Of a stretch of 64,000 bases of DNA, positions 5,078 to 24,103 are shown piece by piece. The translations under genes and the position numbers were made by a program. Source of the DNA: an uncultured Bacteroidota bacterium (GTDB lineage: Bacteria > Bacteroidota > Bacteroidia > Chitinophagales > Chitinophagaceae); assembly GCA_963741345.1 (NCBI GenBank), contig CAVUHS010000002.1:260003-324002 (forward strand), read 5' to 3'. Below the pieces are notes generated by a model. It was not told where the DNA came from. It worked only from the letters and a program-made list of their open reading frames with translations, and made no database searches. Each line of letters starts with the position of its first letter. The stretch's first letter is position 1.

Positions 5078-6019
5078 ATGAAATATTTTTCTATTAAAAA
5101 AGATATATTAGCCACGCTTGCTTATTTCAACTTGTTTGAATATCCCCTAAGGAAGAATGAGATCTTTGGTTTTCTGGGTCACTGCGACGATTACAATGAA
5201 TTTGAGACAGGATTGAAGCATCTTATAGAAGACTCCATGGTTTTTAAGATCGGGGACTTTTATTCAATCCATAATAATTATAAACTTGCGACCCGGCGAT
5301 ACAAGGGCAATGAGGCTGCCCGAATCATGCTCAGGAAAGCAAAACGGGGAGCAGCTCTGATTGCCGCGTTTCCCTATATACGCGCTGTGGGTGTTTCCGG
5401 ATCCCTATCCAAACTTTATGCGGACGATAAGAGCGATATCGACTATTTTATCATCACCTCGGCTAACAGGCTGTGGATTGCCAGGACATTCTTACACATT
5501 TTTAAAAAATTCACTTTTCTGTTTAACCGGCAGCATGATTTCTGCATGAACTATTTTATTGACGAGGCAGATACTGTCATTATTGAAAAAAATATCTATA
5601 CCGCAGCCGAAATTGTTACACTTCTGCCTATCCGGGGGAAGCAGGTTTTCGACAGTTTCTACAAGTCAAACAGCTGGACACAGACTTTTTTCCCCAATAA
5701 AATAATCAATAACCCTGAACTGCCAAGAGCCTGGAAAACATGGATGGGTTATCTGATTGAAAAGATTCTGGACAATCGATTGGGGGATAAACTGGATAAT
5801 TTACTCATGAAGATCACAGCCAGACGCTGGGATAATAAAACCAGTACCAATAAATTAGACAGTAAAGGTATGTTGCAGGGCATGCATACCGGTAAGCATT
5901 TTTCTAAGCAGAATCCCGCATGTCTTCAGAAAAGAATATTAATGCGGTATGAAAAAAGCCTTATTGATATTTTCAGTAAATATGAGGTCTCCCGTTCCTA
6001 TTTAACGGGGAATCAATAA
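5078..6019 (+). CDS. Nucleotidyltransferase-domain protein (DNA pol beta superfamily)
   Basis: GVSGSLSK...KSDIDYFIIT matches hG[GS]x9-13DhD; RLWIART motif. Confidence 0.75.
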   Translation: MKYFSIKKDILATLAYFNLFEYPLRKNEIFGFLGHCDDYNEFETGLKHLIEDSMVFKIGDFYSIHNNYKLATRRYKGNEAARIMLRKAKRGAALIAAFPYIRAVGVSGSLSKLYADDKSDIDYFIITSANRLWIARTFLHIFKKFTFLFNRQHDFCMNYFIDEADTVIIEKNIYTAAEIVTLLPIRGKQVFDSFYKSNSWTQTFFPNKIINNPELPRAWKTWMGYLIEKILDNRLGDKLDNLLMKITARRWDNKTSTNKLDSKGMLQGMHTGKHFSKQNPACLQKRILMRYEKSLIDIFSKYEVSRSYLTGNQ

Positions 6020-6020
6020 A

Positions 6021-6842
6021 TCATTTTTTTCTGAATGATATAATATAATAGTCTCCAATATATTTCCAGGGCCATCTGTTTTTGAGCCGGTTCTCCACCG
6101 AGCGTAAATACGAATATATAATGGGATGATTTTCAGGAAATTTTTCAATGTAAGAAGGAGGTACAATAGTGCATAGACCTTCCATTTCAATTAAATTATA
6201 GTTGGATCTGAGGAGGCGTTTCACAAATCCAGCCGAATAATACCAGCAAGTAAAGGGTAATCCGTCAATTTGCGCATGTCTTCCCTTTGAACTAAAAAAC
6301 CTTCGAAAGGCTGTTCTAAATTTCCCTTTGAACATCAACAGCGATTCCCATAAACAAAACGGAGGAAGAATAACCATTGTTACTATTCCGCCGGGCTTCA
6401 TCAGGCTGTCAAAACTTCCCAGTACCTGCTCCAGGTGAGCCGTACAATTCAGGCCTGCAAAATTTGAAAAAATGCAATCATACGGGCCTTTATTTTTTAG
6501 GTCCTTTAATTCAGTAAAAGAACAAATCTCCTGGCTCACAGATCCTACCAGGTGCCGTCCTATAAGTTTTTGTTTCAGTCTGCTCTGCATGCCGGGGGAA
6601 ATATCTGTTGCATGAATATGATATCCCTGTTGCGCCAGGAAAATTGCGTCTTCACCGGTACCTGCATTTATTTCAAGGATGGAACCACCCGGGTTTAGGT
6701 GTTTTATAAGATGCTCTCTTACCCTTTTGCGTTTGTACTGAATGATCAGATTGCCTGCGTACTGATCGTCAAAGACCAGCGACTGCTTATTGAATGCAAC
6801 CGTTACCCGTTGTTCATTTTCAAATTTAATTGGTATACCCAT
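6021..6842 (-). CDS. Class I SAM-dependent methyltransferase
   Basis: ILEINAGTGED motif I; YDCIFSNFAGLNC; ATG 6842 overlaps the upstream radical SAM stop. Confidence 0.88.
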   Translation of the reverse strand: MGIPIKFENEQRVTVAFNKQSLVFDDQYAGNLIIQYKRKRVREHLIKHLNPGGSILEINAGTGEDAIFLAQQGYHIHATDISPGMQSRLKQKLIGRHLVGSVSQEICSFTELKDLKNKGPYDCIFSNFAGLNCTAHLEQVLGSFDSLMKPGGIVTMVILPPFCLWESLLMFKGKFRTAFRRFFSSKGRHAQIDGLPFTCWYYSAGFVKRLLRSNYNLIEMEGLCTIVPPSYIEKFPENHPIIYSYLRSVENRLKNRWPWKYIGDYYIISFRKK

Positions 6843-8304
6843 GTGCCGGATTTTCCAGAAGCCTGAGTTTTTGTTTATCAATAAATGCCGCAGGTAAATA
6901 GTAGAATATGGATAAGGCTCTTCTCAAACGATAATAATTCAATTTCAGGGGATGCGCCAATAATTGTTTAACATCTTCGAAAGCCAGGTGCTTTCTATAC
7001 GATTTATGAACATAGCGGTGCAGCTGTTTATAGAAAGCAGGCTGGTAAGTATTTCTGAACATAAGTGCCATTTCATCTGAATCTTTCCAGTTTGTTTTAT
7101 TTACCAATTCCTTTTTCACTTTTTCGAAGAATAAAGTACCTGGTAATGGATAAGAAACCGATATCCCAATCTCAAAAGGAAGTAACTTATTGATCATGGA
7201 TATGGTCTTTTGAATATCTTCCTTTGTTTCATTCAGATATCCAAATTGTATAAAGAAAGAGGGTTTGATTCCGCATTTCTTTAGTAAATGGGTGGCTTCA
7301 GCGATCTGCTGTACGGTTGTTCCTTTGTCCATGGCATCCAGAATCCTCTGGGAGCCGCTTTCTGCACCCATCCAGATGTTTTCGCAACCGGCTCTTGCGA
7401 GATCCATTATATTATTTTCCTGTAGAAGCAGATCCACACGCCCCTGCATTTTAAACCTGAAATCCAGTTTTTCATCTTGAATCAAATCCGCAAATTCATT
7501 TACCCAACCAGGCTTTAAACCAAAAATATCATCACAGAACCATATATGATCAAACCGGTATTTACTCTTAAGCATTTTCAATTCCATGAGTACATTTTGG
7601 GGACTCCGGCTATTATAACGGTTGCCGTATATTGGTTTGGCACACCAGTTACACTTAAAAGGGCAGCCCCGGGTAGTGGCCATATTCATGGAAAAATATC
7701 CGGCATTCTTTAACCAACTGTTTCTGTAAGGCTCCAAATTGATCATATCCCAGGCAGGAAATGGAAGTGAATCCAGATCCTTCATTACATGCCGCTGTTT
7801 TGTTTTTACTACCGCCCCGTTATGTTTGAATGCAAGTCCCTCTATGGAATAATAATCATGGTTTTTGACCTCCAATGCCTCCACCAATTCCCTGACTGTT
7901 AATTCCGCTTCCCCGAGTAAAACAAAATTCGCTCCCCTGTTTAGATACATTTCGAACCGGTCAGTAGAATCAGAGCTTGAAACGATGACGGTGCAACCAT
8001 ATTCACTGGCCTGCCGGATCATCTCAAATGCTGCCTCCCGCATATTTTCCAGGCACATTTTGGTCAGGTAGTTAAAACCATCGTCATAAATAATAAAAAT
8101 ATCGGGGCGACCGGATAGGATAACAGGCCGGATTTCTTCCGGGCCCGCCGAAAACATGGTATCAAAAAATGAAACTTTATACCCCTTTTCTTTTAGAACT
8201 GCAGCCGCATACAGGGTTCCCAAAGGAGCATACGGTTTTCCTCCGGCCCATTGTTTTGGATCAAAGCGCAGAAAATAAGAATGTGTAATCAGAATTTTTT
8301 TCAT
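6826..8304 (-). CDS. Cobalamin-binding radical SAM enzyme
   Basis: N-terminal B12-binding domain (PLGTLYAAAVL); TRGCPFKCNWC; MGAESGSQRILDAMDKG. Confidence 0.92.
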   Translation of the reverse strand: MKKILITHSYFLRFDPKQWAGGKPYAPLGTLYAAAVLKEKGYKVSFFDTMFSAGPEEIRPVILSGRPDIFIIYDDGFNYLTKMCLENMREAAFEMIRQASEYGCTVIVSSSDSTDRFEMYLNRGANFVLLGEAELTVRELVEALEVKNHDYYSIEGLAFKHNGAVVKTKQRHVMKDLDSLPFPAWDMINLEPYRNSWLKNAGYFSMNMATTRGCPFKCNWCAKPIYGNRYNSRSPQNVLMELKMLKSKYRFDHIWFCDDIFGLKPGWVNEFADLIQDEKLDFRFKMQGRVDLLLQENNIMDLARAGCENIWMGAESGSQRILDAMDKGTTVQQIAEATHLLKKCGIKPSFFIQFGYLNETKEDIQKTISMINKLLPFEIGISVSYPLPGTLFFEKVKKELVNKTNWKDSDEMALMFRNTYQPAFYKQLHRYVHKSYRKHLAFEDVKQLLAHPLKLNYYRLRRALSIFYYLPAAFIDKQKLRLLENPAHGYTN

Positions 8305-8387
8305 ATCCCGCAAATTACTTGGAGTAAACCCATATGAAAATCTTTAGGGTGCCCGAAAATATGCTTGCTTCGATGCATAAGTTCTGG

Positions 8388-9434
8388 TTATATTTTTGCC
8401 GACGGTTTTAAATTCAGGTAGCAAACACATTTTAAACAGGTCTCGTTATTTTCCATGTCCAGCGTTTTTCTGAATCGAACAGCTGCCGGTCCGTTGAGAA
8501 TGGATTCAAAAGATCCGGATTTGATATTTCCGTATGGTTTGTGAAAAAAACAGGGTCGAACCGTCCCGTCTGCTTCTATCACGGCTGAAACCCAGGGTGC
8601 ATTGCATTTTTTATATGGAAAAGGATTTAAACCCAGACAAGCGGCGTAATAATAATATATTTTCTGAAATTTCTGTGGGGGTTCAGCGATGAATCCACTG
8701 ATAAATTCCGGCTTGCACTGATCCAGTATTCTGTGCATAATTTCTTTCATTTCCTCCAGTTCAGATTCTGATAAAAGAATTTCAAGCTGCCTGTCTTCGG
8801 GCCAGCCATTTTCCCTGTTAAATGCTGTACTACTGGTATCTGCCGGCAAAAAACTAATTGAATGCAGCCCGATTTCCTTTGCTGTCTGAATTATATGGGG
8901 CCAGAAACGAAAATTCAGACGATGTATAACGCTTCTGCCAGAGATCCTGAACTGAGGACTGATGGCATGTATAGTTTCAATACCGTGCTTCAATTTTTCG
9001 AATGCTCCCGGGATGTTCCGGATATGGTCATGTGTAAGCTTGTCTCCATCAAGAGAAACAATAATATCATCCACCCAGTTTACCAGCTGCTCCGCGTTTT
9101 TTTTTAAGGTCAGACCGGTAGAGAGTAAACTGATTTTTATATTCTGTTCTTTCAGAATTGCACAAAATTTGAAAAAATTTGGATTCAGGAGCGCTTCCCC
9201 GCCCGACATAACCAATTGCCTGGTTTGTAATTTTTTCAAGGTTGACAGTAGCCCCCGGATATCTTCTTCTTCCAGCTGTTTCAGATTGTGATTTCCCTTC
9301 CATATATCGCACATCACGCAGCGGCAATTGCAGGAACTATGGGGCATCAGCACGACGACCGGCAGGTTGATAATCTTATCAGTCTGAAGCGTGAGATACC
9401 GGTTGTACGTCTGGTATAGTGATTGTATGGTCAT
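8388..9434 (-). CDS. Radical SAM enzyme with C-terminal twitch/SPASM domain
   Basis: CNCRCVMC; MSGGEALL; C-terminal CNAPW...DGTVRPC...CLKCVC. Confidence 0.9.
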   Translation of the reverse strand: MTIQSLYQTYNRYLTLQTDKIINLPVVVLMPHSSCNCRCVMCDIWKGNHNLKQLEEEDIRGLLSTLKKLQTRQLVMSGGEALLNPNFFKFCAILKEQNIKISLLSTGLTLKKNAEQLVNWVDDIIVSLDGDKLTHDHIRNIPGAFEKLKHGIETIHAISPQFRISGRSVIHRLNFRFWPHIIQTAKEIGLHSISFLPADTSSTAFNRENGWPEDRQLEILLSESELEEMKEIMHRILDQCKPEFISGFIAEPPQKFQKIYYYYAACLGLNPFPYKKCNAPWVSAVIEADGTVRPCFFHKPYGNIKSGSFESILNGPAAVRFRKTLDMENNETCLKCVCYLNLKPSAKI

Positions 9435-9438
9435 TTTT

Positions 9439-10938
9439 TTAAAAACCCTGTATCTCTGGCTGCCTGTATTTCCATATACGGTGCATCAGTTTAATTTCAT
9501 ACGGATATTTATGCATATTGATATTATACCTGATTCCGGCAATCATGCGCATGGCCCTGCGTTTGAAATTGCTTAACCGTATATCAGTAACGGTTGGATA
9601 ATATCCGTTCAATACCGTTTCGAAGTTTTTGATTTTATCTATCATCGCCGGGGTTAGCCAGGGAGTTAGCGGATTTTTTCTGAGGTCAAAATTTTCCCAG
9701 GCGGGGCTAATCCAGTCTTCCAGCTTTTCAGGAAACTTAAATCCCCTGGCCAGGGCCTGGTTATAAAGATCAGAACCCTCGGTGGCTACCGGGCTATAGG
9801 TGTACAGGACAATTTCTGTTCCGGGATTGATCCTTTTTATTTTCTTGATAAAGTTTATTTCAAAATCAATCTGGGCTTCCACCTCTTCCGGTGTCGGGGC
9901 TGGTGTTCCCAAAACAAATGAATACTCCGGAATAATATCGAATTTTTTCAGTCTTTCTGCAAACGCAAGAATCTGGTCTCCCGTTTGAGTTCCGCCCTTG
10001 TCCATTTGCTTCAGTATGGCATTATTACCACTTTCAGCCCCAAAGAAAATAATCTTACAGCCTGCCTCCCTGATCAGGGCGAGCGATGAGTCCCTGAACT
10101 TGTGCATGGTATCAATTCGGGCCATACCCCACCAGTTCATTTTTTCAGGCAGGATCAGGTTCGCAAATTCAACTGTTCGTCTTTCAGATACAAAGAAATT
10201 ATTGTCATGAAATTCAATCGCATCCGCACCCCATTTGTATTTGATGTACCGGATATCATTGTATATTTTCTTTGCTGATTTTGCCTTCCATCTCGCCTCA
10301 TAAGTCGGCACAACCGCACAGAATGAACAGGTAAAGGGGCAACCGATACTGGAATGATATGCAAGCGTTTTTTGTCCCAGGTAAGTTTTACCAAGGTATT
10401 TCTCCATCGAATAAAACTCATTCAGCTTATTATAAGGGAGTTCGGGCAAATCATCCTGTTCGATGAGATCTTCTTTCTTTGTTTTAATAATTTGTTCCCC
10501 GGACTTATAAATCAGGTTTTTTATTAGTTCATAAGGTTTATTATTCTCCAATGCATCTATAAGGGCCGGAAAACAATGGTCGCCCGGCCCATTGATGACA
10601 AAATCCACATAACCGGAATTGAGCGCCACCTTATATTGATTCGTTGGAAAATATCCGCCCCAGATAATGGTGATTCCCGGAAAATATTCCCTGATCATTC
10701 GGGAGAAAGGAATCGCCTGTTTTAACTGAGGTCCCGGCATTACAGTGATACCGACATATTTAAACTGATCCGTCTCCAGGTATTCTGCAATTCTGGCCAT
10801 TGGATCCAATTCCCGGTTACCGTCTACAATCACCCATGGATATTTGCCCTCTACGGAAGCTGCGATGTTCAAAATAGAGTTCGGTACGCGGAACTTTGCG
10901 TAGGCGGATCTTGGATTGAATAATAAAATCCTGTTCAT
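9439..10938 (-). CDS. Cobalamin-binding radical SAM enzyme
   Basis: IIWGGYFPT B12-domain motif; SIGCPFTCSFC; FGAESG. Confidence 0.92.
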   Translation of the reverse strand: MNRILLFNPRSAYAKFRVPNSILNIAASVEGKYPWVIVDGNRELDPMARIAEYLETDQFKYVGITVMPGPQLKQAIPFSRMIREYFPGITIIWGGYFPTNQYKVALNSGYVDFVINGPGDHCFPALIDALENNKPYELIKNLIYKSGEQIIKTKKEDLIEQDDLPELPYNKLNEFYSMEKYLGKTYLGQKTLAYHSSIGCPFTCSFCAVVPTYEARWKAKSAKKIYNDIRYIKYKWGADAIEFHDNNFFVSERRTVEFANLILPEKMNWWGMARIDTMHKFRDSSLALIREAGCKIIFFGAESGNNAILKQMDKGGTQTGDQILAFAERLKKFDIIPEYSFVLGTPAPTPEEVEAQIDFEINFIKKIKRINPGTEIVLYTYSPVATEGSDLYNQALARGFKFPEKLEDWISPAWENFDLRKNPLTPWLTPAMIDKIKNFETVLNGYYPTVTDIRLSNFKRRAMRMIAGIRYNINMHKYPYEIKLMHRIWKYRQPEIQGF

Positions 10939-11088
10939 AGCATTTCACGGAGAAATATGGCCCCGTTTCATGATACGGCCAATATCCCCGGCTGGTTGCA
11001 ATAACCCTAATAAATGACAGAAATACAACCTATTCCACCCTGTTTCCGTATACACAAAGAAGAAGTCTTATTCAACCAGGTCATAATT

Positions 11089-11835
11089 ATGATAGCAACC
11101 ATTAAAAACTTCCTGCAGAGGGCCGTTTTCCCGGAAATCGCCAGGAATCCGGTACAGGCTTATGAAATTTGGTCTGAGACCTATGATCAGCAGCCAGGTA
11201 ACCTCATGCTTGACCTGGATGAAGAAATCTTTACAAACCTGATAGAAGATACTGATCTTAGGAATAAGGGGGTGGCTGATATAGGTTGCGGTACGGGAAG
11301 GCATTGGAGAAAAATATATCAAAAACAGCCGGCCTTTCTGATGGGGTTTGATGTCTCCCAGGGAATGCTTAAGCAGCTTTTGCGGAAATACCCCGCTGCC
11401 CTGACTCAACATATTACAGATAATTCGCTGAAACAGGTGCCCGATGAATTTATCGATTGCCTGGTAACAACCCTTACGATTGCCCATATTGAAAACATAG
11501 AGGTAGCCATTGCGGCCTGGTCAAGAGTATTAAAATCCGGGGGGGATCTCATTATAACAGATTTTCACCCTGAGATGCTTGCAAACGGTGGTAAACGAAG
11601 TTTCTCACACGAAGGCAGGAGTCTGTCTGTGGTCAATTTTATTCACCCGCTTGAAAAGTTAAAGAAAATTTTTACAAAATATGAACTGACCATTTTAAGG
11701 ACGGAGGAAAGAAAAGTGGATCAATCAGTGAAAATTTACTATGAATCTCAGGGTGCAATGACAGTATTTAACCGTTTTTTCGGTATCCCCATCATTTATG
11801 GAATCCATTTAAAGAAATCCCGTGAAGCTGAATAG
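11089..11835 (+). CDS. Class I SAM-dependent methyltransferase (BioC-like)
   Basis: VADIGCGTGR; RVLKSGGDLIITDFHP; start 11089 or 11014. Confidence 0.88.
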   Translation: MIATIKNFLQRAVFPEIARNPVQAYEIWSETYDQQPGNLMLDLDEEIFTNLIEDTDLRNKGVADIGCGTGRHWRKIYQKQPAFLMGFDVSQGMLKQLLRKYPAALTQHITDNSLKQVPDEFIDCLVTTLTIAHIENIEVAIAAWSRVLKSGGDLIITDFHPEMLANGGKRSFSHEGRSLSVVNFIHPLEKLKKIFTKYELTILRTEERKVDQSVKIYYESQGAMTVFNRFFGIPIIYGIHLKKSREAE

Positions 11836-13009
11836 CCTGTTCCTGGTAAATGAAAGCCAGCCTGTGAATATTACAGTTCACGGTGAAAAAATTGTGGCGA
11901 TCTATAACGACAATGATACAGGAACATCCGATCCATATCAAATAAATTTCTCAAATGCTGTGGCGATTCCTGGTCTCATTAATTCCCACGATCACCTGGA
12001 TTTCAATTGCTTCCCGGTGTATGGTGATAAAATTTACAATAACTATACAGAATGGGGCAGGCATATTCACAAAGAATTTGGCGATCCCATAAAAGCTGTA
12101 CTTCATATCCCGCAAAACCTCCGGGCGACCTGGGGTATGTATAAAAATTTACTGGCAGGGGTGACTACTGTGATTAATCACGGTAAATTTCTGAATATTG
12201 AAAATCCGCTGATCCATATTTACCAGGAGTTACAGAATATTCATTCGGTGCAGTTTGAGAAGAATTGGAAATGGAAACTGAATAATCCCCTGTTTCTATC
12301 CAAAGATTGTGTTGTACATGCCGGTGAAGGTTCGGATACACGATCCTCCAGGGAAATTGACTTATTAATAAAATACAATCTGCTGAAAAAAAACCTGATA
12401 GGGGTTCATGGCGTGGCAATGAATAAAGAACAGGCCAAATATTTTAAGGCACTTGTATGGTGCCCCGAATCAAACCGTGTATTATTAGATGCTCATGCGC
12501 CTATTGCAAAACTAAAAAAAAGTACCCGGATAGTTTTCGGCACAGATTCAACGCTCACCGGCAACTGGAATATCTGGAATCATTTGCGAGTGGCCAAATC
12601 ACTCGAACAAGTGAGCGACTCCGAATTGTACGATATGGTTACCCGTTCGCCCGCCGATCTATGGAACCTCAACAAGGGCAAACTGAAGCCAAAAAAAGAT
12701 GCCGATATTGTAATCGTGAAGAAGAAAAACGCTCACCCGGATTTGAGCGGGCTGTTTAAATCAAATCCGGAAGATATACTCATGATTATTCAGCAGGGAA
12801 ATATCAGGCTATTTGATAAATGTTTACTGGGGCAATTCAATTCCCTGCCCATCGACCTTAACCGTTTCAGTCAGATTAAAATGAAGGGGAATGAAAAATT
12901 TGTTGAAGGTAATCTGCCGCAACTGATCTCCTCCATTAAATCTTATCATCCTGCAGTCCGGTTTCCCGTGGGGGTTTTTGAACCCCTGATGCATGTCGAT
13001 TATGATTAA
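11822..13009 (+). CDS. Metal-dependent amidohydrolase family protein
   Basis: PGLINSHDHL, VHAGEG, VHGV, GTDS and KDADIV motifs. Confidence 0.88.
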   Translation: MKLNSLFLVNESQPVNITVHGEKIVAIYNDNDTGTSDPYQINFSNAVAIPGLINSHDHLDFNCFPVYGDKIYNNYTEWGRHIHKEFGDPIKAVLHIPQNLRATWGMYKNLLAGVTTVINHGKFLNIENPLIHIYQELQNIHSVQFEKNWKWKLNNPLFLSKDCVVHAGEGSDTRSSREIDLLIKYNLLKKNLIGVHGVAMNKEQAKYFKALVWCPESNRVLLDAHAPIAKLKKSTRIVFGTDSTLTGNWNIWNHLRVAKSLEQVSDSELYDMVTRSPADLWNLNKGKLKPKKDADIVIVKKKNAHPDLSGLFKSNPEDILMIIQQGNIRLFDKCLLGQFNSLPIDLNRFSQIKMKGNEKFVEGNLPQLISSIKSYHPAVRFPVGVFEPLMHVDYD

Positions 13010-14105
13010 GGTTATAGATATTGTTTATTATTCCTACAATACAATCACAGATCCCGGTGTGGTCCTGGATAGGCATGCTCCTTCTCTGGGATTTGCGAAT
13101 TTTATCCCGGAAGAAATAAGGATGGAATTTATAATACACATGAATCATGAGGGTTTCGAAAAAATCGGGGGAAATAACTATGCTTTCTTCAAAAGCCGAA
13201 ACCGGTTCTGGTATATTCCGTTTAAGACACATCACTACATTAAAAGAAAAGGTCCGGACATTGTAATTGTGGAAGGTCTTGGATTTCCCCTGCAGGTTAT
13301 ATTCTTAAAATGGCTCCTGGGAAAAAAATGCCGGATTTTTGTTCAACATCATGGCGAAAAACCATTGACGGGGATAAAAGGGCTGCTACAGAAGCAGGCC
13401 GATAAAAGTGTTCACCGTTACCTGTTCACGTCATTACAAAATGGAACTGAATGGGTCAATAAGAGAATAATTCGTAACGCCGGAAAATGCAAAGAGGTTC
13501 TTGAAGCATCTACTCATTTCAAAAGACTGGACAAATCAAAATGCCAGGCCAGACTTGGTATATCAGGGAACTACAATCTTTTGTGGGTTGGGAGGCTCAA
13601 CAGTAACAAAGATCCGATGACGGTGCTGAACGCATTTAGAAAATTCGGACTTTATCATCCGAACGCCAGGCTTTATATGATTTTCCAGGAAGAAGACCTT
13701 CTGGAAGAAATAAATGCTAAAATACGCCAGAGCGTTGTGCTGGAAGACGCAGTAAAACTGGTAGGAAGAATTGCTCATAATGAACTGGTCTATTGGTACA
13801 GTGCAATCAATTTCTATATCTCCGGAAGCCATAAAGAAGGAAGCGGCTACGCTTTACTTGAAGCCATGGCCTGCGGTTGTATTCCGGTTGTCACCTCTAT
13901 TCCCCCCTTTGAAAAAATTACATCTTTTGGTAAATATGGATTTCTATACCCTCCTGGTGACGATAGTGCCCTGACCTTACAGCTGGAAAGTCTTTATTCC
14001 CTCGACATAGAATCCTTTCGAAAGAAAGTGGAAAATTGGTTCCGTGATAATCTTAGTTTTAAAAATATCGCCACCAGCCTTGAACAGGTTTTCACTCAAT
14101 TATAA
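12993..14105 (+). CDS. Glycosyltransferase family 4
   Basis: WVGRLNSNKD; EGSGYALLEAMACG (EX7E). Confidence 0.9.
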   Translation: MSIMIKVIDIVYYSYNTITDPGVVLDRHAPSLGFANFIPEEIRMEFIIHMNHEGFEKIGGNNYAFFKSRNRFWYIPFKTHHYIKRKGPDIVIVEGLGFPLQVIFLKWLLGKKCRIFVQHHGEKPLTGIKGLLQKQADKSVHRYLFTSLQNGTEWVNKRIIRNAGKCKEVLEASTHFKRLDKSKCQARLGISGNYNLLWVGRLNSNKDPMTVLNAFRKFGLYHPNARLYMIFQEEDLLEEINAKIRQSVVLEDAVKLVGRIAHNELVYWYSAINFYISGSHKEGSGYALLEAMACGCIPVVTSIPPFEKITSFGKYGFLYPPGDDSALTLQLESLYSLDIESFRKKVENWFRDNLSFKNIATSLEQVFTQL

Positions 14106-15152
14106 AGAGCAAGTAGCTTTTTACAGCAATCGTCCATGGGATAAGTCAGGACCGGATCGTGGCTAAGATTTTTCGATTCCAGCAACTCTTTCACTTTCAT
14201 TTCCATTTCCTCTTTTGTTTTTACAACGTACTGGTTATCGAATCCCGAATTCATGGGCTGGCAATAACTTACTACGACTGCGCCGGCATAAAGCGCTTCT
14301 GCACATACCATTCCAAATCCTTCATAGGAAGATGGATGCAAAAAAAGTTTTGAGCGTTGCATGTATTCCAAAACCTTTCCATGATTCAGCTCCCCTACCA
14401 GTTTAACATGATCGCCCAATTCAAATTGCCGGATCAGTTGTTCCAGTTTAACCCGCTCGGGCCCATCACCACAGATGACCGTCCTGATATCAGGTTTGGA
14501 ATGGATAAGACCGGCAACAAGTTTTATAAACTGGTCATATTGCTTTAATGGTATCAGCGAACCGGCACCCAGGATATCAATGTCCCTCTCCCCGCTATCA
14601 GCAGTGAAAAGTGTAAGATCCAAACCGGGAGGAATAGTATATGCAGGCCTCATCTTATAGTTCCTGAAAAATTCCTCCGATATAAAATCCGATAATGCGA
14701 TGAGAGATTCCATTCCGGGGTTTATAATTGAAACATAGCGATTTCCCTTTTTTGCATCCTGGCCCAGAATCCATGTATATGATCTGAGATGATATTTTTT
14801 TGCCGCATATTTTGCAAGAAGAGCACATTCACCCAGCCAAAAACTTAATATCCCGATCACATTTTTCTCCCGCATGATTTTTCTGATCCTTTTCCAGATG
14901 GTTACCCACAACAAAAGACGGTTAATTTTCCCCCGGTTTCTTCCATTAAAGGCATGAACTTCTATGTCATGCCATTTGTACACACCGAGCCGAAAAAGGA
15001 TACTGAAAGGCCAGTACGATAATATTCAATGAGGAATTCAATTGCTTCAGGTTCTTAACGAAGGATTGCGGAAACGGCACACAGGTACTGTCTTCTTCGT
15101 TTTCCGGAAAACCCGGTATCAATATAATCAATGTCTGTTCAAGAGGACTCAT
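14096..15152 (-). CDS. Glycosyltransferase family 4, split by a +1 frameshift near 14987
   Basis: ORFs 14967-15152 and 14096-14983 join as QYPFSA-GVYKWHD if one base is removed; EGFGMVCAEA motif; ~351 aa reconstructed. Confidence 0.82.
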
Positions 15153-16806
15153 CCAAAACTATTTTCCGGTTACAATAAGGCAACGCCGTCATACTGTGTG
15201 TAATCAGAATAACGATCTTGTCCCGGGTTGCAATTTTCTGAAGCTCCTTCAGCATTTGTATTTCTGAGGGTTCATCCAGCTCATTAAATGGTTCATCCAA
15301 AATCAGCAGGTCAAAATCCCTGTAAAGGGCCCGCGCAAAGATGAAGCGCTGCCTTTGGCCGCCACTTAAATTTTTACCGTTTTCCGTAATTACCGTTTCC
15401 AACCCATTGGGAAATTCTTTAATCAGTTTATCGATACCAGTAATCATTGAAATTTTTTCTATTCTCTCCCTGTCTGGAGGCTCTTCCTGTAGTGTTATGT
15501 TTTCTTTTATGGATGCATGAAGAAAAAAATGCTGCTGTTTTATATATGATATGCTTCCCCAATAACTTTTTCTCTCAGTTGCATCAGCCAGTTTCCCATT
15601 TATATAAATACAGCCTGCTTCCGGCTCCAAAAATCCAAGCAGGAGATTTATCAATGTTGTTTTTCCTTTCCCTGAACTGCCGGTTATTCCGATCATATCG
15701 CCTCTATTCATCTTTAATGAAAAAGACCTCAGAATGTTCTTATCATTAAAACTGAAATAAATATTTTCAAGGCCGATAGACGAAATAGGTAATCCTTTTC
15801 CCGGATTCTTAAAGAACTGATCGCCTTCCTTACTTAAACCTCTGGTAGTATATGAATAGGTTTTAACCTGGCCAATGGTATTTGTAATCTTCACAATTCC
15901 CGGAATTATTTTGTATGCCGCAACCATCAGCGCACCAATTGTAACCAATTGTATTGATGCGTTATGAGATGTAAAATAATTGATCATTATAAGAACAAAC
16001 AAGCCGAAAACAGCAAATATTTCAATAAACCGGGGAGGCATGCCCTGGATTATCAGCCTCTCAGCAAGATAGTGATTGAGTTGCGACTGGAAGCGGTGGT
16101 ATCGGTTAGTAAAAAAATCGCTTTTCAGATTAATATTGCTTTCAACATAACCAGTCAATGCCTCTTGTAAGTGCTGGATGGATTTCTCACTGGTTTTCTG
16201 CCCGAGCTGTCGGCTGGTGTGCAGCCTGCTTTTCATAAAAAATGAAATAAGGAATACCGGCGGAACCAGGATTAATATTAATAAGGGTAACAACAGCGGA
16301 TTATAAAAAAGTATGGCAATTAGTGTAATTATTATCAGGACCACCTGGCTGAAAATCTGTTGAATACCATTCAAAACATAATGGCAGAATTCAATAGGCT
16401 GTTGGTTTATTTTCCTGTTCATTACAGAGGAATCCACATGCACATAGTCTGAATAGGGCCCGTTCAGATACTGCAACAGGCCGTCCCTGGAAATCCTGGA
16501 TGCAACACGATAAACAAAATTATATTCTCCTTTTAAAACCAGGAATCCCAAAATATTTTTTATCAGGAATAATACGGTAAATAACCCGATCGGAAGGAAC
16601 GGGTAATTTATAAATAACGGGAATGAAATAATATGCGGCAGGACGGCCTTCCCAGGCCTGGTATAATAATCTACCAGCCACAGTAGCGCGATGAGAAACC
16701 CAATATCCAGTATACTGATAAATACGTCTGCAATTGCAAGTTTCCATAGTATTTCTTTCTCACCCGCATTTAAAATTTTGAATATATCTTTCAGAATCTG
16801 CTTCAA
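15139..16806 (-). CDS. ABC exporter, fused permease/ATPase (MsbA/PglK-like)
   Basis: N-terminal TM helices; GSSGKGKT, LSGGQRQR, LLILDEP. Confidence 0.92.
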   Translation of the reverse strand: MKQILKDIFKILNAGEKEILWKLAIADVFISILDIGFLIALLWLVDYYTRPGKAVLPHIISFPLFINYPFLPIGLFTVLFLIKNILGFLVLKGEYNFVYRVASRISRDGLLQYLNGPYSDYVHVDSSVMNRKINQQPIEFCHYVLNGIQQIFSQVVLIIITLIAILFYNPLLLPLLILILVPPVFLISFFMKSRLHTSRQLGQKTSEKSIQHLQEALTGYVESNINLKSDFFTNRYHRFQSQLNHYLAERLIIQGMPPRFIEIFAVFGLFVLIMINYFTSHNASIQLVTIGALMVAAYKIIPGIVKITNTIGQVKTYSYTTRGLSKEGDQFFKNPGKGLPISSIGLENIYFSFNDKNILRSFSLKMNRGDMIGITGSSGKGKTTLINLLLGFLEPEAGCIYINGKLADATERKSYWGSISYIKQQHFFLHASIKENITLQEEPPDRERIEKISMITGIDKLIKEFPNGLETVITENGKNLSGGQRQRFIFARALYRDFDLLILDEPFNELDEPSEIQMLKELQKIATRDKIVILITHSMTALPYCNRKIVLDESS

Positions 16807-19501: not shown

Positions 19502-20203
19502 ATGAAGTTCTGCTTATCTGCTTTTGTTTTACTGATGGTGTCTGTGTCCATTTCCTGCGCTCAACCTGTTGCTAATGACGGACTCGCTTCTAAGATATCT
19601 GACAGTCTGGTAAACATCCTTTCTTCCAACTATTCCAAAGCCATCCGGGACAGTATCGTTAGAGATGTAAAAGACAGTCTTCGCTGGGTAAATTTGAAAA
19701 GCACGCTCTTTTATCCCGTTATCAAAAACAGCGAATGGTCTGGCGTCCTACCGGTTAACGGAATCGGGGAAAGACCGGATTCAACTATGAAATACAAATT
19801 ATTATTTAATATGACGCTATGGCCCAAGGATAGTGTCAGTCGAAAAAAGCTAAATGAGGGTCTTGCTGAAATCGGCCGGGTTATTAATCTGCATGTGGCT
19901 GCCGGAGTTCCAAAGGAAAATCTTGAATTGGTTATAGTAATACACGGAGGCGCTCTGAATACTTATCTGAATAATGAAGCTTATCATAAGAAATTTAATG
20001 TGGATAATCCGAACCTGGCCATCCTTAAACAATTTTCGGATCTTCATTCCAGGTTACTTGCCTGTGGACAGGCGGAGCAATTCTTTAGTATCACGGCGGA
20101 AACCATGATTCCCCAGGTAAAAACAGCATTAAGTGCGCAGGTTGTTCTTTCAACCTATCAGTTAAAGGGATATGTATTGTACAATATTCAGGAAGAAAAA
20201 TAA
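19502..20203 (+). CDS. Exported DsrE/DsrF-like protein
   Basis: Possible lipobox ISC; RVINLHVAAGV, VVIHGGA, LLACGQ with conserved Cys. Confidence 0.78.
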   Translation: MKFCLSAFVLLMVSVSISCAQPVANDGLASKISDSLVNILSSNYSKAIRDSIVRDVKDSLRWVNLKSTLFYPVIKNSEWSGVLPVNGIGERPDSTMKYKLLFNMTLWPKDSVSRKKLNEGLAEIGRVINLHVAAGVPKENLELVIVIHGGALNTYLNNEAYHKKFNVDNPNLAILKQFSDLHSRLLACGQAEQFFSITAETMIPQVKTALSAQVVLSTYQLKGYVLYNIQEEK

Positions 20204-20245
20204 TTGTCCTGCGAATTCTGCCCGCTTTAACTCCAGAATTGGATC

Positions 20246-21109
20246 CTAGGCGCCCAGCCTTTTTAATTTTCTGATTTGTAAAAACAGGTAAACTAAAACA
20301 CCCCAGACAAGTGCAATAACAGAGTATGCCATCCATTCCAACCAGAGAGGTGACCATCCTCTTCTCGCAAAAAGGGACCTTTTATTAAATTCAGAGATAT
20401 ATTGCGTAGGCTTCCCCCAGGGGACAGATTTTTCGGTTGTCAGGTTTCCATAGACATCATTGTCTTCTACTTTGGCAATAATGATCAGGTTCCCTGCAGA
20501 ATCTCCCGGCAGATCATTGCGTTTAAATTCAGCACTGATCGCACCCAGGGAGTCCGTCGTATAAGACGGCGTTTCACTTACATTTAAATCACCTCCTAGC
20601 CTCTTCACAGCAATTTTTAGATCTACTCCTTTAACGGGTGTCCAGAGTGAATCCTTGTATTCTGTTATAACGGCCGTAATATTCCGATCAGCAGCTGTAT
20701 CAATTTTGATTCGCGCTTTGGTAAGGTCAAAACTTGTCTGAACAGCATCGTATAATCCGGAGGAATCTGAAATAGCCAGAAAACTGTGTTTCCGCGATTT
20801 GTTCCATTCATCTTTTGCGGCAGCGGATATCAGCATGTTAGCCTGCCCCTTTTCGTTTGTTACCGTTTTGCCCAGCAAATTGTCCGCACTTTCTGAATTG
20901 ATATAAAATCGAAGGCCGATCCCGGCCACGGGTTGAAATTTTCCATTGATCTTAGTCTTAGTATTCGCCTTCAGATATTGCTGCTGGTTGTTGTCATTAA
21001 AATACCCGAGACCTAGAATCAGGTTGTTTTTTGCTGCCTGGGAAAATGCCAGGTCGGTTATAAAAACCGAAAATATGATGGAAAGGCAGATATATTTAAG
21101 CTTTTTCAT
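20246..21109 (-). CDS. Hypothetical periplasmic Ig-like protein with C-terminal membrane anchor
   Basis: Signal peptide, beta-rich body, C-terminal TM helix plus basic tail; overlaps nrfD stop. Confidence 0.65.
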   Translation of the reverse strand: MKKLKYICLSIIFSVFITDLAFSQAAKNNLILGLGYFNDNNQQQYLKANTKTKINGKFQPVAGIGLRFYINSESADNLLGKTVTNEKGQANMLISAAAKDEWNKSRKHSFLAISDSSGLYDAVQTSFDLTKARIKIDTAADRNITAVITEYKDSLWTPVKGVDLKIAVKRLGGDLNVSETPSYTTDSLGAISAEFKRNDLPGDSAGNLIIIAKVEDNDVYGNLTTEKSVPWGKPTQYISEFNKRSLFARRGWSPLWLEWMAYSVIALVWGVLVYLFLQIRKLKRLGA

Positions 21110-22403
21110 GCTCGTCAATTTCATCGATTGTTTCTTGAATTGGAATGATTGGAAAAATCCGGGCGAAAATGGTAACGATCAACATCATCCCGGCCAGGGA
21201 ACCCCCGGCTATTGCCCATTCTTCCCAGCTGGGGAAATAATGACGGTATGAAACCGGGACGTCACGCATCGGTAAAAAAGGATGCAACAAAGTCGGCGTA
21301 ACAATAAGATATCTTTTGAACCAGGAACCAACTACGACTAAGCTGCCGGCGATAAATGCCGGGAATGGTCTTCTGCCTTTTCTATTGACTAGAATAAGGA
21401 TCGGTAGAAACATCGAAGTTGAAATGGCGAACCAGAACACGGTTGAATATTCCCCGGTAAATAGTCCCAGCAAATGATCTGCATCCGTTTTTTTCATTTT
21501 GAATGCAGGTACCAGGAATTCGTTTACGTTAAAATAAAGATATATCAGGGCCAACAGGACTACTATTTTTCCCATCCGGTCAAAATTGTTTATGGTTATG
21601 TACTTATCTAGTTTATAAGCTTCACGGAAAACATACATCGCGACCAGTACTGCACCTGCCCCGACTAGAAATGCTCCTGAAATGAAATAAGCACCGAAGT
21701 TCGTACTATCCCAACCCGGGCGATAGGTCGTGGCGAAAAGCCAGGATGTTACCGTGTGAATAGCAAATGCAACTGGAATAATAGTAATGGACAACATATT
21801 GACAGACCGGCGATTTATTTTTTTTTGCTGCGGAGTACCTTTCCAGAACGACCCCAGAAATGCATACATTTTGTCGAGCCTGTTGCCTGCTTCTTTCTTA
21901 AATTTCAACATTATACTAAAGTCAGGTAAAAGCGGAAAATATAAAAGCAAAAGGCTGATAAAGAAATAAGTCGTAATGACGATTACATCCCAGATGATCG
22001 GGGATTGAAGCCGGCCATGAATGAACAGGTTATAAAATCTGTCTGGTCGGCCCATATCTACAACGATAATTATAGAGGCAAATGTGATTGCAGAAACAGC
22101 TATTATTTCGGCTATTCTTGTCAATGGGGTACTCCATTTTACATTACTCAAACGGAACACGGCTGTAATCAATGAACCCACCAGGCTGATTGCTACAAAG
22201 AAAACAAAATTGGATATATAGATCCCCCAGGACGCATAGTCCCGCATGGACGTAACGACCAGACCCTTTGATAACTGTCGTATATATGCAACCAATCCGA
22301 CAACACAAATAAAGAGCAATACGACAACCCATATTTTTCCCCGCCTGCCAAATTTTTTCGGAAGCAGATCTTCAATTACTTTCTGTCTGGCTAAAATTTC
22401 CAC
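21096..22403 (-). CDS. nrfD: NrfD/PsrC-family quinol-interacting membrane subunit
   Basis: WGIYISNFVFF, PLTRIAE, DMGRPDR, SPIIWD, HTVTSW motifs; multiple TM helices. Confidence 0.9.
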   Translation of the reverse strand: MEILARQKVIEDLLPKKFGRRGKIWVVVLLFICVVGLVAYIRQLSKGLVVTSMRDYASWGIYISNFVFFVAISLVGSLITAVFRLSNVKWSTPLTRIAEIIAVSAITFASIIIVVDMGRPDRFYNLFIHGRLQSPIIWDVIVITTYFFISLLLLYFPLLPDFSIMLKFKKEAGNRLDKMYAFLGSFWKGTPQQKKINRRSVNMLSITIIPVAFAIHTVTSWLFATTYRPGWDSTNFGAYFISGAFLVGAGAVLVAMYVFREAYKLDKYITINNFDRMGKIVVLLALIYLYFNVNEFLVPAFKMKKTDADHLLGLFTGEYSTVFWFAISTSMFLPILILVNRKGRRPFPAFIAGSLVVVGSWFKRYLIVTPTLLHPFLPMRDVPVSYRHYFPSWEEWAIAGGSLAGMMLIVTIFARIFPIIPIQETIDEIDEHEKA

Positions 22404-22406
22404 GGC

Positions 22407-23348
22407 TTATGATTTAATTTTTTCCTTTTTTTCTTCACCCTGATCATCTTTGTTTTCGAATGGAAAATTTCGGCTGACTGGTGGTAAATAATATACGCTG
22501 GGTTTTGTTCCAAGATCTTCCATTAAACGATATCCGGCTTTGTCACGTATCAGTTCACTAAAACGGAATGTTTCAGCCCCGTTAGTTACAGAATCCTCGA
22601 TCATGTCTCCGAAAAAGAAAACACCATTCGGACATGCTGAAACGCAATGGGGTAGTTCCCCTTTCCGGGTCATATCGGCGCAGAAATCACATTTGCTGAC
22701 TGTACCGATTTTTTGCGGGATACTGGTTTCACAGGAATAAGGCTGAGCTGCGACTTCCTTGGGTAACTCGGGTGTTTCCCAATTGAAGACACGCGTAGAA
22801 TACGGACAGGCGGCCATGCAGAAACGACAACCGATACATCGGTCACTATCGATCAACACAATTCCATCTTCGCGTTTAAATGTTGCATCCACCGGACAGA
22901 CCTTTACACAGGGAGGTTCATCACAATGCATACAGGTAGTGGGTTCCCAATAAGGAGCCGTATACTCTGCATCCTGCATGGGATAAATCTTGATCCAGTT
23001 GAGACCGGGATTTAAATCGTGGGCATGGTTACAGGACGATTGACAGGCTTTTACGCTTTTACAGCGGGAAAGATCAATTACCATGACAAATTTTTTACCC
23101 GGGATACCAATTCTGGCTTCAGCATTGGTAACAGGTGGCAGATCAGGAACGGGTCTTAAAAAGGCTTCATCCATTTCTATGACTTCGCCGTCTACTGACA
23201 GAAGTTTTACCATCTTTCCTGTAGGATGTGACAATTCATTCGCCCTGGCATCAAACGGATTTGGCTTTGAAGAACATCCTGCGAGTGTGGCACCAGCCAG
23301 CAATCCCGCCGCTAAGAAATCCCTTCTGGATGTATCATTTGTACTCAT
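22407..23348 (-). CDS. NrfC/DmsB-like iron-sulfur protein, Tat lipoprotein
   Basis: SRRDFL...LAGC; CMHCDEPPCVKVCP, CIGCRFCMAACP, CDFC...CVSACP; first Cys group degenerate (CKSVKAC). Confidence 0.92.
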   Translation of the reverse strand: MSTNDTSRRDFLAAGLLAGATLAGCSSKPNPFDARANELSHPTGKMVKLLSVDGEVIEMDEAFLRPVPDLPPVTNAEARIGIPGKKFVMVIDLSRCKSVKACQSSCNHAHDLNPGLNWIKIYPMQDAEYTAPYWEPTTCMHCDEPPCVKVCPVDATFKREDGIVLIDSDRCIGCRFCMAACPYSTRVFNWETPELPKEVAAQPYSCETSIPQKIGTVSKCDFCADMTRKGELPHCVSACPNGVFFFGDMIEDSVTNGAETFRFSELIRDKAGYRLMEDLGTKPSVYYLPPVSRNFPFENKDDQGEEKKEKIKS

Positions 23349-23367
23349 TGCACTCGTATTAATTCAA

Positions 23368-23637
23368 TTATTTTTTTACCCAGTCCCGCAATTCCTGATC
23401 GGAAACTTTTCCCTTCCTTGTTTTTATATTTGAAATGTCCACTTCTAACAGCTTCCCATCCTGTGATAACACTTTCATTGTTTGAGGTTCTTTCGGCGGG
23501 GCGCAAGAGATAACCTGTTTCTTTTTCGAAAACAGGCTGGTTGCTTTCAAGAGGGAAAAAAGAGAAAGTACGCCGATACTGGTCAGTAATTTTCTTCTGG
23601 TTCTTACTTCCGGATTTGTTGATGGTAGCTTTTCCAT
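23368..23637 (-). CDS. Small Tat-signal hypothetical protein
   Basis: TRRKLL plus hydrophobic stretch; lies in the operon; shares a motif with the FeS protein N-terminus. Confidence 0.7.
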   Translation of the reverse strand: MEKLPSTNPEVRTRRKLLTSIGVLSLFSLLKATSLFSKKKQVISCAPPKEPQTMKVLSQDGKLLEVDISNIKTRKGKVSDQELRDWVKK

Positions 23638-23701
23638 ATTACTTATTAACAGGCATGGCAGGTCGCTTTCCCATCCAGCCGGGTTTTTGGGAAGTATTAA
23701 T

Positions 23702-24103
23702 TTATTTTTTCAGCGTCCGCATATAGATTACCAGGTCCCATAAATCATCTGCATCCGGAATTTTCTTTTTGAAACTGGGCATATCATCCCGTCCTTCAGA
23801 AACTTTATAAAATAGTGAACCGTCAGACTGAGATTGAAAGGAGGCTACTGTCATGTCATTGGGCTGCGTTTTCAACTGGGCAGCTTTTGAACCATCTCCA
23901 AGGCCAGTTTTACCATGACAGGAAGAACAATGCTGGCTCCATAATGCCTTGCCTGCTGTAATTGATTCTGAGGAAGATTTAACCGGATTTGGTGTTTTGG
24001 CCGCTTTTTCAGGAACAGGCCATGGTTTAGGCTGTTGATTTGTTCTAAAACCAACAGTAAGAAGGAATAATCCAGAGATAGCACTAAGAATAAGAACTTT
24101 CAT
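23702..24103 (-). CDS. Periplasmic monoheme cytochrome c
   Basis: Signal peptide; CSSCH; distal Met in DDMPSF. Confidence 0.92.
   Translation of the reverse strand: MKVLILSAISGLFLLTVGFRTNQQPKPWPVPEKAAKTPNPVKSSSESITAGKALWSQHCSSCHGKTGLGDGSKAAQLKTQPNDMTVASFQSQSDGSLFYKVSEGRDDMPSFKKKIPDADDLWDLVIYMRTLKK

Follow-up and report, generated by a model that had tools for sequence, protein, structure and literature searches.

A conserved radical SAM gene cassette of Bacteroidota and its link to surface-glycan loci

Class B radical S-adenosylmethionine (SAM) enzymes are known from the biosynthesis of antibiotics, cofactors, lipids and peptides. Among the described systems, those closest to the genes reported here include the antibiotic sugar-tailoring pathways (GenK/GenD1, AprD4, BlsE and BtrN-type), in which class B and twitch/SPASM radical SAM enzymes are likewise combined with glycosyltransferases and ordinary methyltransferases. 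AprD4 of the apramycin pathway and BlsE of the blasticidin S pathway act on sugars, and GenK and GenD1 are the class B C-methylases of gentamicin biosynthesis. Here, we analyse a cassette of ten genes (g1 to g10) at positions 5078-16806 of a 64,000-nucleotide stretch of DNA (hereafter, the window) from an uncultured bacterium of the Chitinophagaceae (Bacteroidota; assembly GCA_963741345.1, contig CAVUHS010000002.1, positions 260,003 to 324,002).

The products of the antibiotic pathways are aminoglycosides or nucleosides secreted by Actinobacteria, whereas the cassette is linked with a surface-glycan locus of the Wzx/Wzy type in Bacteroidota. The nearest solved structures include AprD4 for g3/g5 and BlsE for g4, but the similarity of the antibiotic-pathway enzymes to the cassette is low (E 1e-6 to 1e-20) and reaches no NCBIfam equivalog cut-off; GenK and GenD1 are likened by pathway description. 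As an analogy, the cassette resembles antibiotic sugar-tailoring radical SAM chemistry transplanted into a surface-glycan locus. Another parallel is Fom1/Fom3 of fosfomycin biosynthesis, where a nucleotidyltransferase also stands beside a B12 radical SAM enzyme (Fom3, a class B C-methylase), as in the minimal triad g1+g3+g2 of the cassette, which differs by its glycan rather than phosphonate context. Fom1 is a cytidylyltransferase of another fold, while g1 combines a pol-beta fold with a winged helix. The likeness invites the idea that the radical enzyme might act on a nucleotidylated substrate.

On the glycan side, the comparison is with the Wzx/Wzy polysaccharide loci for O-antigen, capsule and exopolysaccharide, since relatives of the cassette carry Wzx, Wzy_C, an initiating transferase, a DUF1972-GT4 and GT2/GT4 glycosyltransferases beside it. 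In some of them, a small GT2 is present together with a GT-C transferase and a polysaccharide deacetylase, which recalls the carrier-linked sugar modification of the ArnC/ArnD/ArnT type. To our knowledge, no surface-glycan locus has been described that combines three radical SAM enzymes, a pol-beta nucleotidyltransferase and a deaminase in one conserved block. The cassette was undescribed in the literature searched and no described pathway matched it; the literature search and the equivalog cut-offs agree with the preliminary description, made from the sequence alone, which could not assign the cluster to any pathway.

Conservation of the cassette and its link to Wzx/Wzy loci

At a rough probability of 0.62, we propose that the cassette is the cytoplasmic tailoring half (radical SAM chemistry and methylation) of a surface-glycan locus in two parts, whose counterpart lies on a different contig of the same genome, C1. 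Relatives of g1 were found at 378 places in a collection of species-representative genomes, and 94 loci were mapped against the ten cassette proteins. The order g1-g2-g3-g4-g5-g6-g7-g8-g9-(g10) is kept in most of the 94 loci, which span three orders, namely the Chitinophagales (Puia, Ferruginibacter, Niastella), the Sphingobacteriales (Mucilaginibacter, Pedobacter) and the Cytophagales (Runella); the best 80 loci are from Bacteroidota only. This recurrence of gene order is far above chance. The preliminary description had made its proposal depend on co-occurrence of the genes in other genomes, which was clearly found across these 94 loci and three orders. The minimal recurrent core consists of g1, g3 and g2 (loci L036 and L039). 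When an orthologue of g5 (E <= 1e-100) was taken as the marker of the cassette, it was present in 28 of 400 high-quality Bacteroidota genomes (~7%) and 24 of 179 genera, as well as in 15 of the 24 sampled genomes of the host's own genus.

All open reading frames (ORFs) of the 94 loci were clustered and Pfam was run on the representatives. The usual predecessors of g1 are genes for a DUF1972-type GT4 (58 of the loci), for a GT2 and for a GT4 (46 each), for a protein of the Wzy_C family (41), for a Polysacc_synt protein of the Wzx type (30) and for two proteins of unknown function. In the Ferruginibacter loci (e.g., L020), such genes and the cassette form a single block, WzyC-unk293-Wzx-MT-GT2-unk408-GT4-DUF1972GT4-g1...g9, where MT stands for a methyltransferase and unk293 and unk408 stand for uncharacterised proteins of 293 and 408 aa. 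The accessory cassette genes of the relatives encode a GT-C/PMT_2 transferase, a small GT2, a GT9, extra methyltransferases, a third B12 radical SAM enzyme, a polysaccharide deacetylase, a GNAT protein and flavin-reductase-like proteins. The neighbours, the accessory genes and the natural fusions of the g1 family (described below) all indicate glycan metabolism.

The window itself contains none of the glycan genes that precede g1 in the relatives. The cluster had been called an orphan without Wzx or Wzy, which is correct for the window but not for its relatives, where the cassette is contiguous with Wzx, Wzy_C and glycosyltransferase genes, nor for the host genome, which has an orthologous locus on C1. 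This partner locus (G000:C1:415000-430150; L107, L117) encodes a GT2, an ATP-binding cassette (ABC) exporter, Wzy_C, unk293, Wzx, a methyltransferase, a second GT2, unk408, two more methyltransferases, a GT4 and a DUF1972-GT4, and a Bac_transf initiating transferase adjoins it (Polysacc_synt 149.6 bits, Wzy_C 33.8, Bac_transf 185.8). Seven of the C1 genes are 42-65% identical, with their order kept, to the genes directly upstream of g1 in Ferruginibacter (L020, L056, L057), and the identity of g1-g9 to those genomes, 45-60%, is comparable. As both the gene order on C1 and the range of identity match, we conclude that the contiguous 20-gene locus of the relatives is split in two here. The GT-C, unk552 and Wzx_473 families of the relatives were not found in the host genome by tblastn (E < 1e-5).

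From this synteny, we infer a functional link between the C1 locus and the cassette in the host. Because the cassette is contiguous with Wzx/Wzy_C in the relatives and the orthologous locus is present on C1, a decorated polysaccharide or oligosaccharide of the cell surface is a likelier product than a glycolipid, nucleoside or cofactor in free form. The earlier proposal is thus supported in part: the idea of an uncharacterised, heavily tailored and exported glycoconjugate holds, but the kinds of product that it named are less likely.

Enzymes of the cassette

The ten ORFs were recovered at their originally described positions, tightly packed in four alternating strand blocks: g1 (+), g2-g5 (-), g6-g8 (+) and g9-g10 (-). 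Neighbouring genes overlap or lie 1-17 nt apart, except for g3/g4 (74 nt) and the divergent pair g5/g6 (75 nt). The GC content across the cassette is even (0.38-0.43) and similar to that of the flanks. Pfam and NCBIfam support nine of the ten domain assignments, g1 being the exception, and none of the ten proteins reaches a curated NCBIfam equivalog cut-off.

The CX3CX2C motif is intact in all three radical SAM enzymes. The best-conserved gene of the cassette is g5 (9439-10938, minus strand), with identities of 61-92% in the related loci. Its product of 499 aa is a B12-binding radical SAM enzyme, which passes the Pfam cut-off for the B12-binding domain (35.4 bits vs. 32.1), scores 46 bits for Radical_SAM and has the cluster motif CPFTCSFC at residue 200. 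Its best NCBIfam matches are BchE (111.6 bits vs. a cut-off of 481) and PhpK (110 vs. 600), and the nearest solved structures are AprD4 and 9CCB. The class B-type radical SAM enzyme g3 (6826-8313, minus strand; 495 aa) is 32% identical to g5, and its mean column identity across the orders is 71%. It matches Radical_SAM with 70 bits and carries the cluster motif CPFKCNWC at residue 217, but its score for the B12-binding domain (PF02310), 17.8 bits, is under the cut-off of 32.1; of the two B12-binding radical SAM enzymes originally proposed, g5 therefore holds at the Pfam cut-off and g3 stays below it. The N-terminus of g3 is, however, aligned by NCBIfam class B models, with the BchE and ladderane-type models aligning from residue 27 on. 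The best NCBIfam scores of g3 are 141.5 for BchE (cut-off 481) and 127.8 for HpnJ (cut-off 577), and the nearest solved structures are MgmA (9CCB), AprD4, OxsB and CysS. The NCBIfam cut-offs of the named class B equivalogs BchE, HpnJ, HpnR, PhpK, MgmA/TIGR04014, BzaD, AprD4 and ApyD were not reached.

The third enzyme, g4 (8388-9434, minus strand; 348 aa), combines a Radical_SAM domain (50 bits) with a SPASM match (PF13186; 48 bits vs. a cut-off of 21.5). Its CX3CX2C motif is at residue 35, and five cysteines are found in the C-terminal part (277/278, 295, 333, 336 and 338). As these suffice for one auxiliary cluster, g4 is twitch-like rather than a full SPASM enzyme. Its score against the N_Twi_rSAM model, 50.9 vs. 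170, places it outside that subfamily. Among solved structures, g4 comes closest to the cytosylglucuronate decarboxylase BlsE, then to SkfB and YydG.

Two class I SAM methyltransferases accompany these enzymes. The first, g2 (6021-6881, minus strand), matches the Pfam families Methyltransf_12/25/23/31/11 and is translationally coupled to g3, immediately downstream of which it always stands in the relatives. Its start is probably the ATG at 6842 rather than 6881, which would fit the median length of 273 aa in the relatives. The second, g6 (11014-11835, plus strand), matches Methyltransf_11/25/12, shows a weak match to the model of the phospholipid N-methyltransferase PmtA and, in 47 loci, comes after g5 in divergent orientation. 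The domain matches agree with the earlier naming of a radical SAM-twitch enzyme, two class I methyltransferases and an ABC exporter.

A 248-aa methyltransferase between g4 and g5 in 47 relatives, and a GT-C transferase between g3 and g4 in 19 relatives, are both missing in the window and in some Puia relatives, and the cassette described here is in this respect a reduced version. Genes for flavin-reductase-like proteins, under the Pfam cut-off, lie within or beside the cassette in ~16 relatives (e.g., L030:18629-19546 and L069:17458-18426) and are absent from the window. The proteins could be electron donors for the radical SAM/cobalamin enzymes.

The first gene, g1 (5078-6019, plus strand), encodes a protein of 313 aa with a winged helix and a pol-beta-type nucleotidyltransferase-like part, and is present in one copy in the host genome. 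The protein itself has no Pfam match at E <= 0.01 and no NCBIfam or PADLOC match, and its family profile found nothing significant among the sequences of the Protein Data Bank (PDB). Meanwhile, S107-G108-S109, D120, D122 and D162 are invariant among 20 homologues, and the AlphaFold (AF2) model (predicted local distance difference test, pLDDT, 90.8) contains an N-terminal winged helix, a nucleotidyltransferase core and a C-terminal helical part. In structure comparisons, residues 1-67 match winged helices (Z 8-9), and residues 78-201 match the kanamycin nucleotidyltransferase ANT(4') (6nlt) with a Z of 8.2 and a root-mean-square deviation of 3.3 over 109 aa. The Foldseek matches are weak (E 0.03 or worse); the majority are nucleotidyltransferases of the MNT/ANT/AadA type and the minority are winged-helix regulators and unrelated chains. 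Relatives of g1 pass Pfam cut-offs, P0022 for Polbeta (28.3 vs. 26.9) and NTP_transf_2 (26.1 vs. 21) and P0014 for NTP_transf_2 (22 vs. 21), and PF01909 is present in 25-41% of the members of the Atlas clusters. On the basis of the invariant SGS/DxD/D motif, the model fold and the Pfam matches of the relatives, the assignment of g1 as a pol-beta-type nucleotidyltransferase, made in the preliminary description, is upheld.

With 6244 clusters (50% identity, E <= 1e-3), the g1 family is a large one. Natural fusions join its members to an SDR (short-chain dehydrogenase/reductase) sugar epimerase/dehydratase, a GT4, Bac_transf or a class I methyltransferase; the SDR-epimerase fusion is seen in two clusters, one of them from the isolate Aureispira anguillae (complete genome), and the GT4 fusion comes from two independent sources. 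The radical SAM cassette is absent around some genes of the g1 family, namely those in L068, L073 and L102 (Mucilaginibacter) and in L059, L062 and L076. These cassette-free copies stand at the end of a GT2-GT4-Wzy_C block near sulfatases or beside glycogen synthase/GlgC-type genes. The nucleotidyltransferase family is thus wider than the cassette.

The product of g7 (11822-13009, plus strand; 395 aa) had been called an amidohydrolase. The Amidohydro_1 domain is indeed present (61 bits), but in place of a generic hydrolase, motif, profile and fold point to a metal-dependent deaminase/hydrolase of the cog0402 type. The residues H56xH58, H166xxE169, H196 and D242, a set that marks cog0402 deaminases, are invariant among 22 homologues. 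The best NCBIfam scores are 48.9 for the aminofutalosine deaminase family (cut-off 320) and 32 for the 5'-deoxyadenosine deaminase model (cut-off 522). Searched as a single sequence against the PDB with phmmer, g7 gave no match, so its placement comes from profile and fold searches alone. The family profile matched TM0936 first and then the aminofutalosine and methylthioadenosine (MTA)/S-adenosylhomocysteine (SAH) deaminases, with the motifs aligned. The AF2 model (pLDDT 90.9) matched in Foldseek adenosine/MTA/SAH deaminases, TrzN, guanine deaminase and aminofutalosine deaminase as the top structures (E ~1e-15). By motif and modelled fold, we classify g7 as a predicted nucleobase-type deaminase of the cog0402 group, not a generic amide hydrolase. 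It shares its fold and its metal-binding and catalytic residues (HxH, HxxE, H, D) with TM0936, MtaD, DadD and aminofutalosine deaminase, although its identity to them is only ~14-16%, and the fold scores to triazine hydrolases and guanine deaminases are equally good.

The remaining genes, g8-g10, are the least conserved part of the cassette in the 94 loci. The GT4 glycosyltransferase g8 (12993-14105, plus strand; 370 aa) matches Glycos_transf_1 and Glyco_trans_1_4 and follows g7 in 28 loci. The other GT4, g9 (minus strand), matches Glycos_transf_1 with 101.5 bits on an ORF of 295 aa, while its relatives have 351-352 aa. Residues 1-55 of the relatives correspond to frame -2 at 14989-15152 and their remaining residues to frame -3, with the junction (near 14990-15005) adjoining a run of five T. 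The true start of g9 at 15152 overlaps the end of g10 by 14 nt. Two GT4 enzymes had been noted before, and both domains match, but g9 is frameshifted and its span is 14096-15152; the frameshift may reflect either a real pseudogene or an assembly error.

The ABC half-transporter g10 (15139-16806, minus strand; 555 aa) consists of a transmembrane and a nucleotide-binding domain. It scores 101 bits for ABC_tran and 24.4 bits, under the cut-off, for ABC_membrane. Its Walker A, signature and Walker B motifs are intact and the generic features of an ABC exporter are present, without a peptidase domain. The scores for PglK (166.6 vs. 1000), MsbA (188.5 vs. 602) and the type I secretion models are far under the cut-offs, so the analogy with PglK-type flippases drawn in the preliminary description amounts to resemblance.

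Proposed role of the cassette and alternative explanations

The proposed role takes as its starting point the gene content, catalytic motifs, synteny, link to glycan genes and deaminase class observed above. We infer the substrate, the individual reactions and the order of the steps as follows. The C1 half, with its PglC-like initiating transferase, glycosyltransferases, Wzx, Wzy_C polymerase/ligase and second ABC exporter, would assemble an oligosaccharide on a polyprenyl carrier. The cassette would act in the cytoplasm and would need SAM, reduced Fe-S clusters and cobalamin; the organism senses B12, as judged from a cobalamin riboswitch (105.5 bits) located elsewhere in the host genome (G000:C1:279790-279988; L108). 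Likely targets would be the sugars of the carrier-linked glycan or a donor sugar bound for that glycan. The enzymes g3 and g5 may perform C-methylation or another radical rearrangement at unactivated carbons of these sugars, g4 may catalyse oxidation, epimerisation or decarboxylation of a sugar, and g2 and g6 may add O- or N-methyl groups. The putative nucleotidyltransferase g1 might place a nucleotidyl or phospho-linked group onto a hydroxyl, and this group would be either a substituent or a handle on the substrate. Sugars would be added by g8 and g9, and the product would be exported or flipped by g10.

The predicted deaminase g7 would act on a 5'-substituted adenosine, for which the most economical substrates would be the inhibitory by-products 5'-deoxyadenosine and SAH. 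Since the three radical SAM enzymes release 5'-deoxyadenosine and the methyltransferases release SAH, removal of by-products is an economical reading of g7. DadD is reported to recycle 5'-deoxyadenosine, the radical SAM by-product, in methanogens. No MtnN nucleosidase (TIGR01704) scored above the cut-off in the host genome, which is 89% complete.

Several points weigh against this proposal. All of its chemical steps are deduced, given that there is no known product and that no curated equivalog cut-off is reached. In the host genome, the cassette is physically apart from the Wzx/Wzy locus, and the argument that the two halves may still cooperate draws on the shared ancestry of gene order only, not on co-regulation. 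With its own two GT4 enzymes and ABC exporter, the cassette could make a separate product, and because of the frameshift in g9 the pathway may be partly decayed here. The B12 domain of g3 scores under the Pfam threshold, and enzymes of the AprD4 kind work without cobalamin. The scavenger role of g7 is drawn from family resemblance only (profile E 3e-6). Finally, the substrates of class B radical SAM enzymes include lipids, tetrapyrroles, peptides and phosphonates as well.

The main rival explanation, which we regard as unlikely, is that of a self-contained pathway producing a separate exported small glycoconjugate (glycolipid or nucleoside-like) by means of its own GT4 enzymes and ABC exporter, independently of Wzx/Wzy. 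Here and in the nearest relatives (L012, L046, L048), the cassette does stand alone among unrelated genes, and it has the GT4 enzymes and the MsbA/PglK-like exporter that such a pathway would use. A nucleoside-like product would suit the nucleotidyltransferase g1, the nucleobase-type deaminase g7 and the proximity of g4 to the nucleoside-sugar enzyme BlsE. However, the cassette is usually contiguous with Wzx/Wzy_C/glycosyltransferase genes across three orders, and g8-g10 are its least conserved part, with g9 frameshifted in the host. Moreover, a scaffold-forming enzyme is missing, and the fusion partners of g1 are polysaccharide-type enzymes, including Bac_transf.

A further reading keeps the glycan but changes the product, which would be a C-methylated, nucleoside-bearing glycan, new to bacterial surface glycans; we hold it to be quite improbable. 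By analogy with Fom1/Fom3, g1 may attach a nucleotide handle to a sugar or a carrier-linked intermediate on which the radical SAM enzymes would then act. In a variant of this reading, a radical SAM enzyme may add the 5'-deoxyadenosyl radical to a sugar, as MqnE does. In either variant, g7 may deaminate the adenine of the adduct, in the manner of aminofutalosine deaminase, instead of by-products.

Little credence is given to lipid modification, in which the class B radical SAM enzymes would methylate or cyclise an envelope lipid (hopanoid-like, alkyl or polyprenyl), while the GT4 enzymes and the ABC transporter would make and flip a glycolipid. Partial matches of g3/g5 to HpnJ, HpnR and ladderane-type B12 radical SAM models, of g10 to MsbA and, weakly, of g6 to PmtA are consistent with it, but all these scores are far under the cut-offs. 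No cyclase, acyltransferase or ether-lipid gene was found in the window or the 94 loci, whose conserved accessory genes encode glycan enzymes, and a 2026 review of lipid-modifying radical SAM enzymes names no Bacteroidota system.

It is very unlikely that the cassette matures a ribosomally synthesised and post-translationally modified peptide (RiPP), with B12 radical SAM methylases and a SPASM enzyme modifying a precursor that the ABC transporter exports. The enzymes g3/g5 match the ApyD and rSAM_ocin_1 models, g4 matches several SPASM peptide maturases and g10 matches bacteriocin exporters, but again all far under the cut-offs. In agreement with the earlier statement that an obvious precursor peptide is lacking, no small ORF is shared by more than 4 of the ~90 loci, and the recurring ones represent noise or fragments of genes. 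The spacers are 1-155 nt here and the exporter has no peptidase domain. The N-terminal domain of g1 is predicted by the model to have the helix-helix-helix-strand-strand order of a canonical winged helix, not to be PqqD-like; PqqD-like recognition elements have a strand-first order.

An anti-phage defence or conflict system was rejected, as the PADLOC matches (mad2, mad3 and pVip models) are limited to generic methyltransferase, ATPase and radical SAM cores and, despite a match of g9 to Pfam GT4-conflict, the gene order is vertically conserved beside Wzx/Wzy in three orders, is not island-like and has an even GC content.

A phosphonate pathway was also considered as a candidate and rejected, the best score for phosphoenolpyruvate (PEP) mutase (TIGR02320) in the 89%-complete genome being 63.3 bits against a cut-off of 319.55. 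The gene with this score, a member of the PEP mutase/isocitrate lyase superfamily (G000:C2:247152-247895; L112), lies ~13 kb upstream of the start of the window and is probably unrelated.

Genomic surroundings and significance

The genes flanking the cassette are unrelated to it (a MacB-type permease, DUF4440 and SGL proteins upstream; DUF885 and DUF1349 proteins downstream) and are kept beside it solely in the closest relatives. An Rfam scan of the whole window gave no match, and the cassette is without a riboswitch. The scan for regulatory sites yielded 43 promoter-like sites, compared with a mean of 34.8 (standard deviation 6.4) in shuffled sequence, and 10 terminator-like sites, compared with 11.8 (standard deviation 3.8). 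As these counts are not clearly above shuffled sequence, the scan was set aside. Among sequencing runs, one soil metagenome contained 6% of the sampled words of the sequence, and no RNA run containing them was listed. Farther along the window, positions 19502-24103 encode a DsrE-like protein, a 292-aa protein, an NrfD-type membrane subunit, a 4Fe-4S dicluster protein and a c-type cytochrome, which may form a respiratory module resembling alternative complex III or a polysulfide reductase.

The conserved block, which is wired into surface-polysaccharide loci, comprises two or three radical SAM enzymes of class B and one of the twitch type, several methyltransferases, an adenosine-type deaminase and a member of an unusual nucleotidyltransferase family. 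Neither glycans nor polysaccharides are mentioned in a 2026 review of B12 radical SAM enzymes. The split locus of the host also illustrates that synteny in relatives can assign a seemingly orphan tailoring cluster to its scaffold genes. Several carriers of the cassette are cultured organisms; those with the complete block include Pedobacter planticolens LMG 31464 (L071), Mucilaginibacter sp. FT3.2 (L093), M. pineti (L097), M. calamicampi (L086) and Niastella caeni (L031).

If the proposed tailoring of a surface glycan is true, abundant soil bacteria would bear undescribed, radical-installed and B12-dependent modifications of their surface sugars. This would have a bearing on recognition by phages and predators, on the chemistry of soil polysaccharides and on the demand for B12, and the cassette would be a source of new sugar-modifying enzymes.

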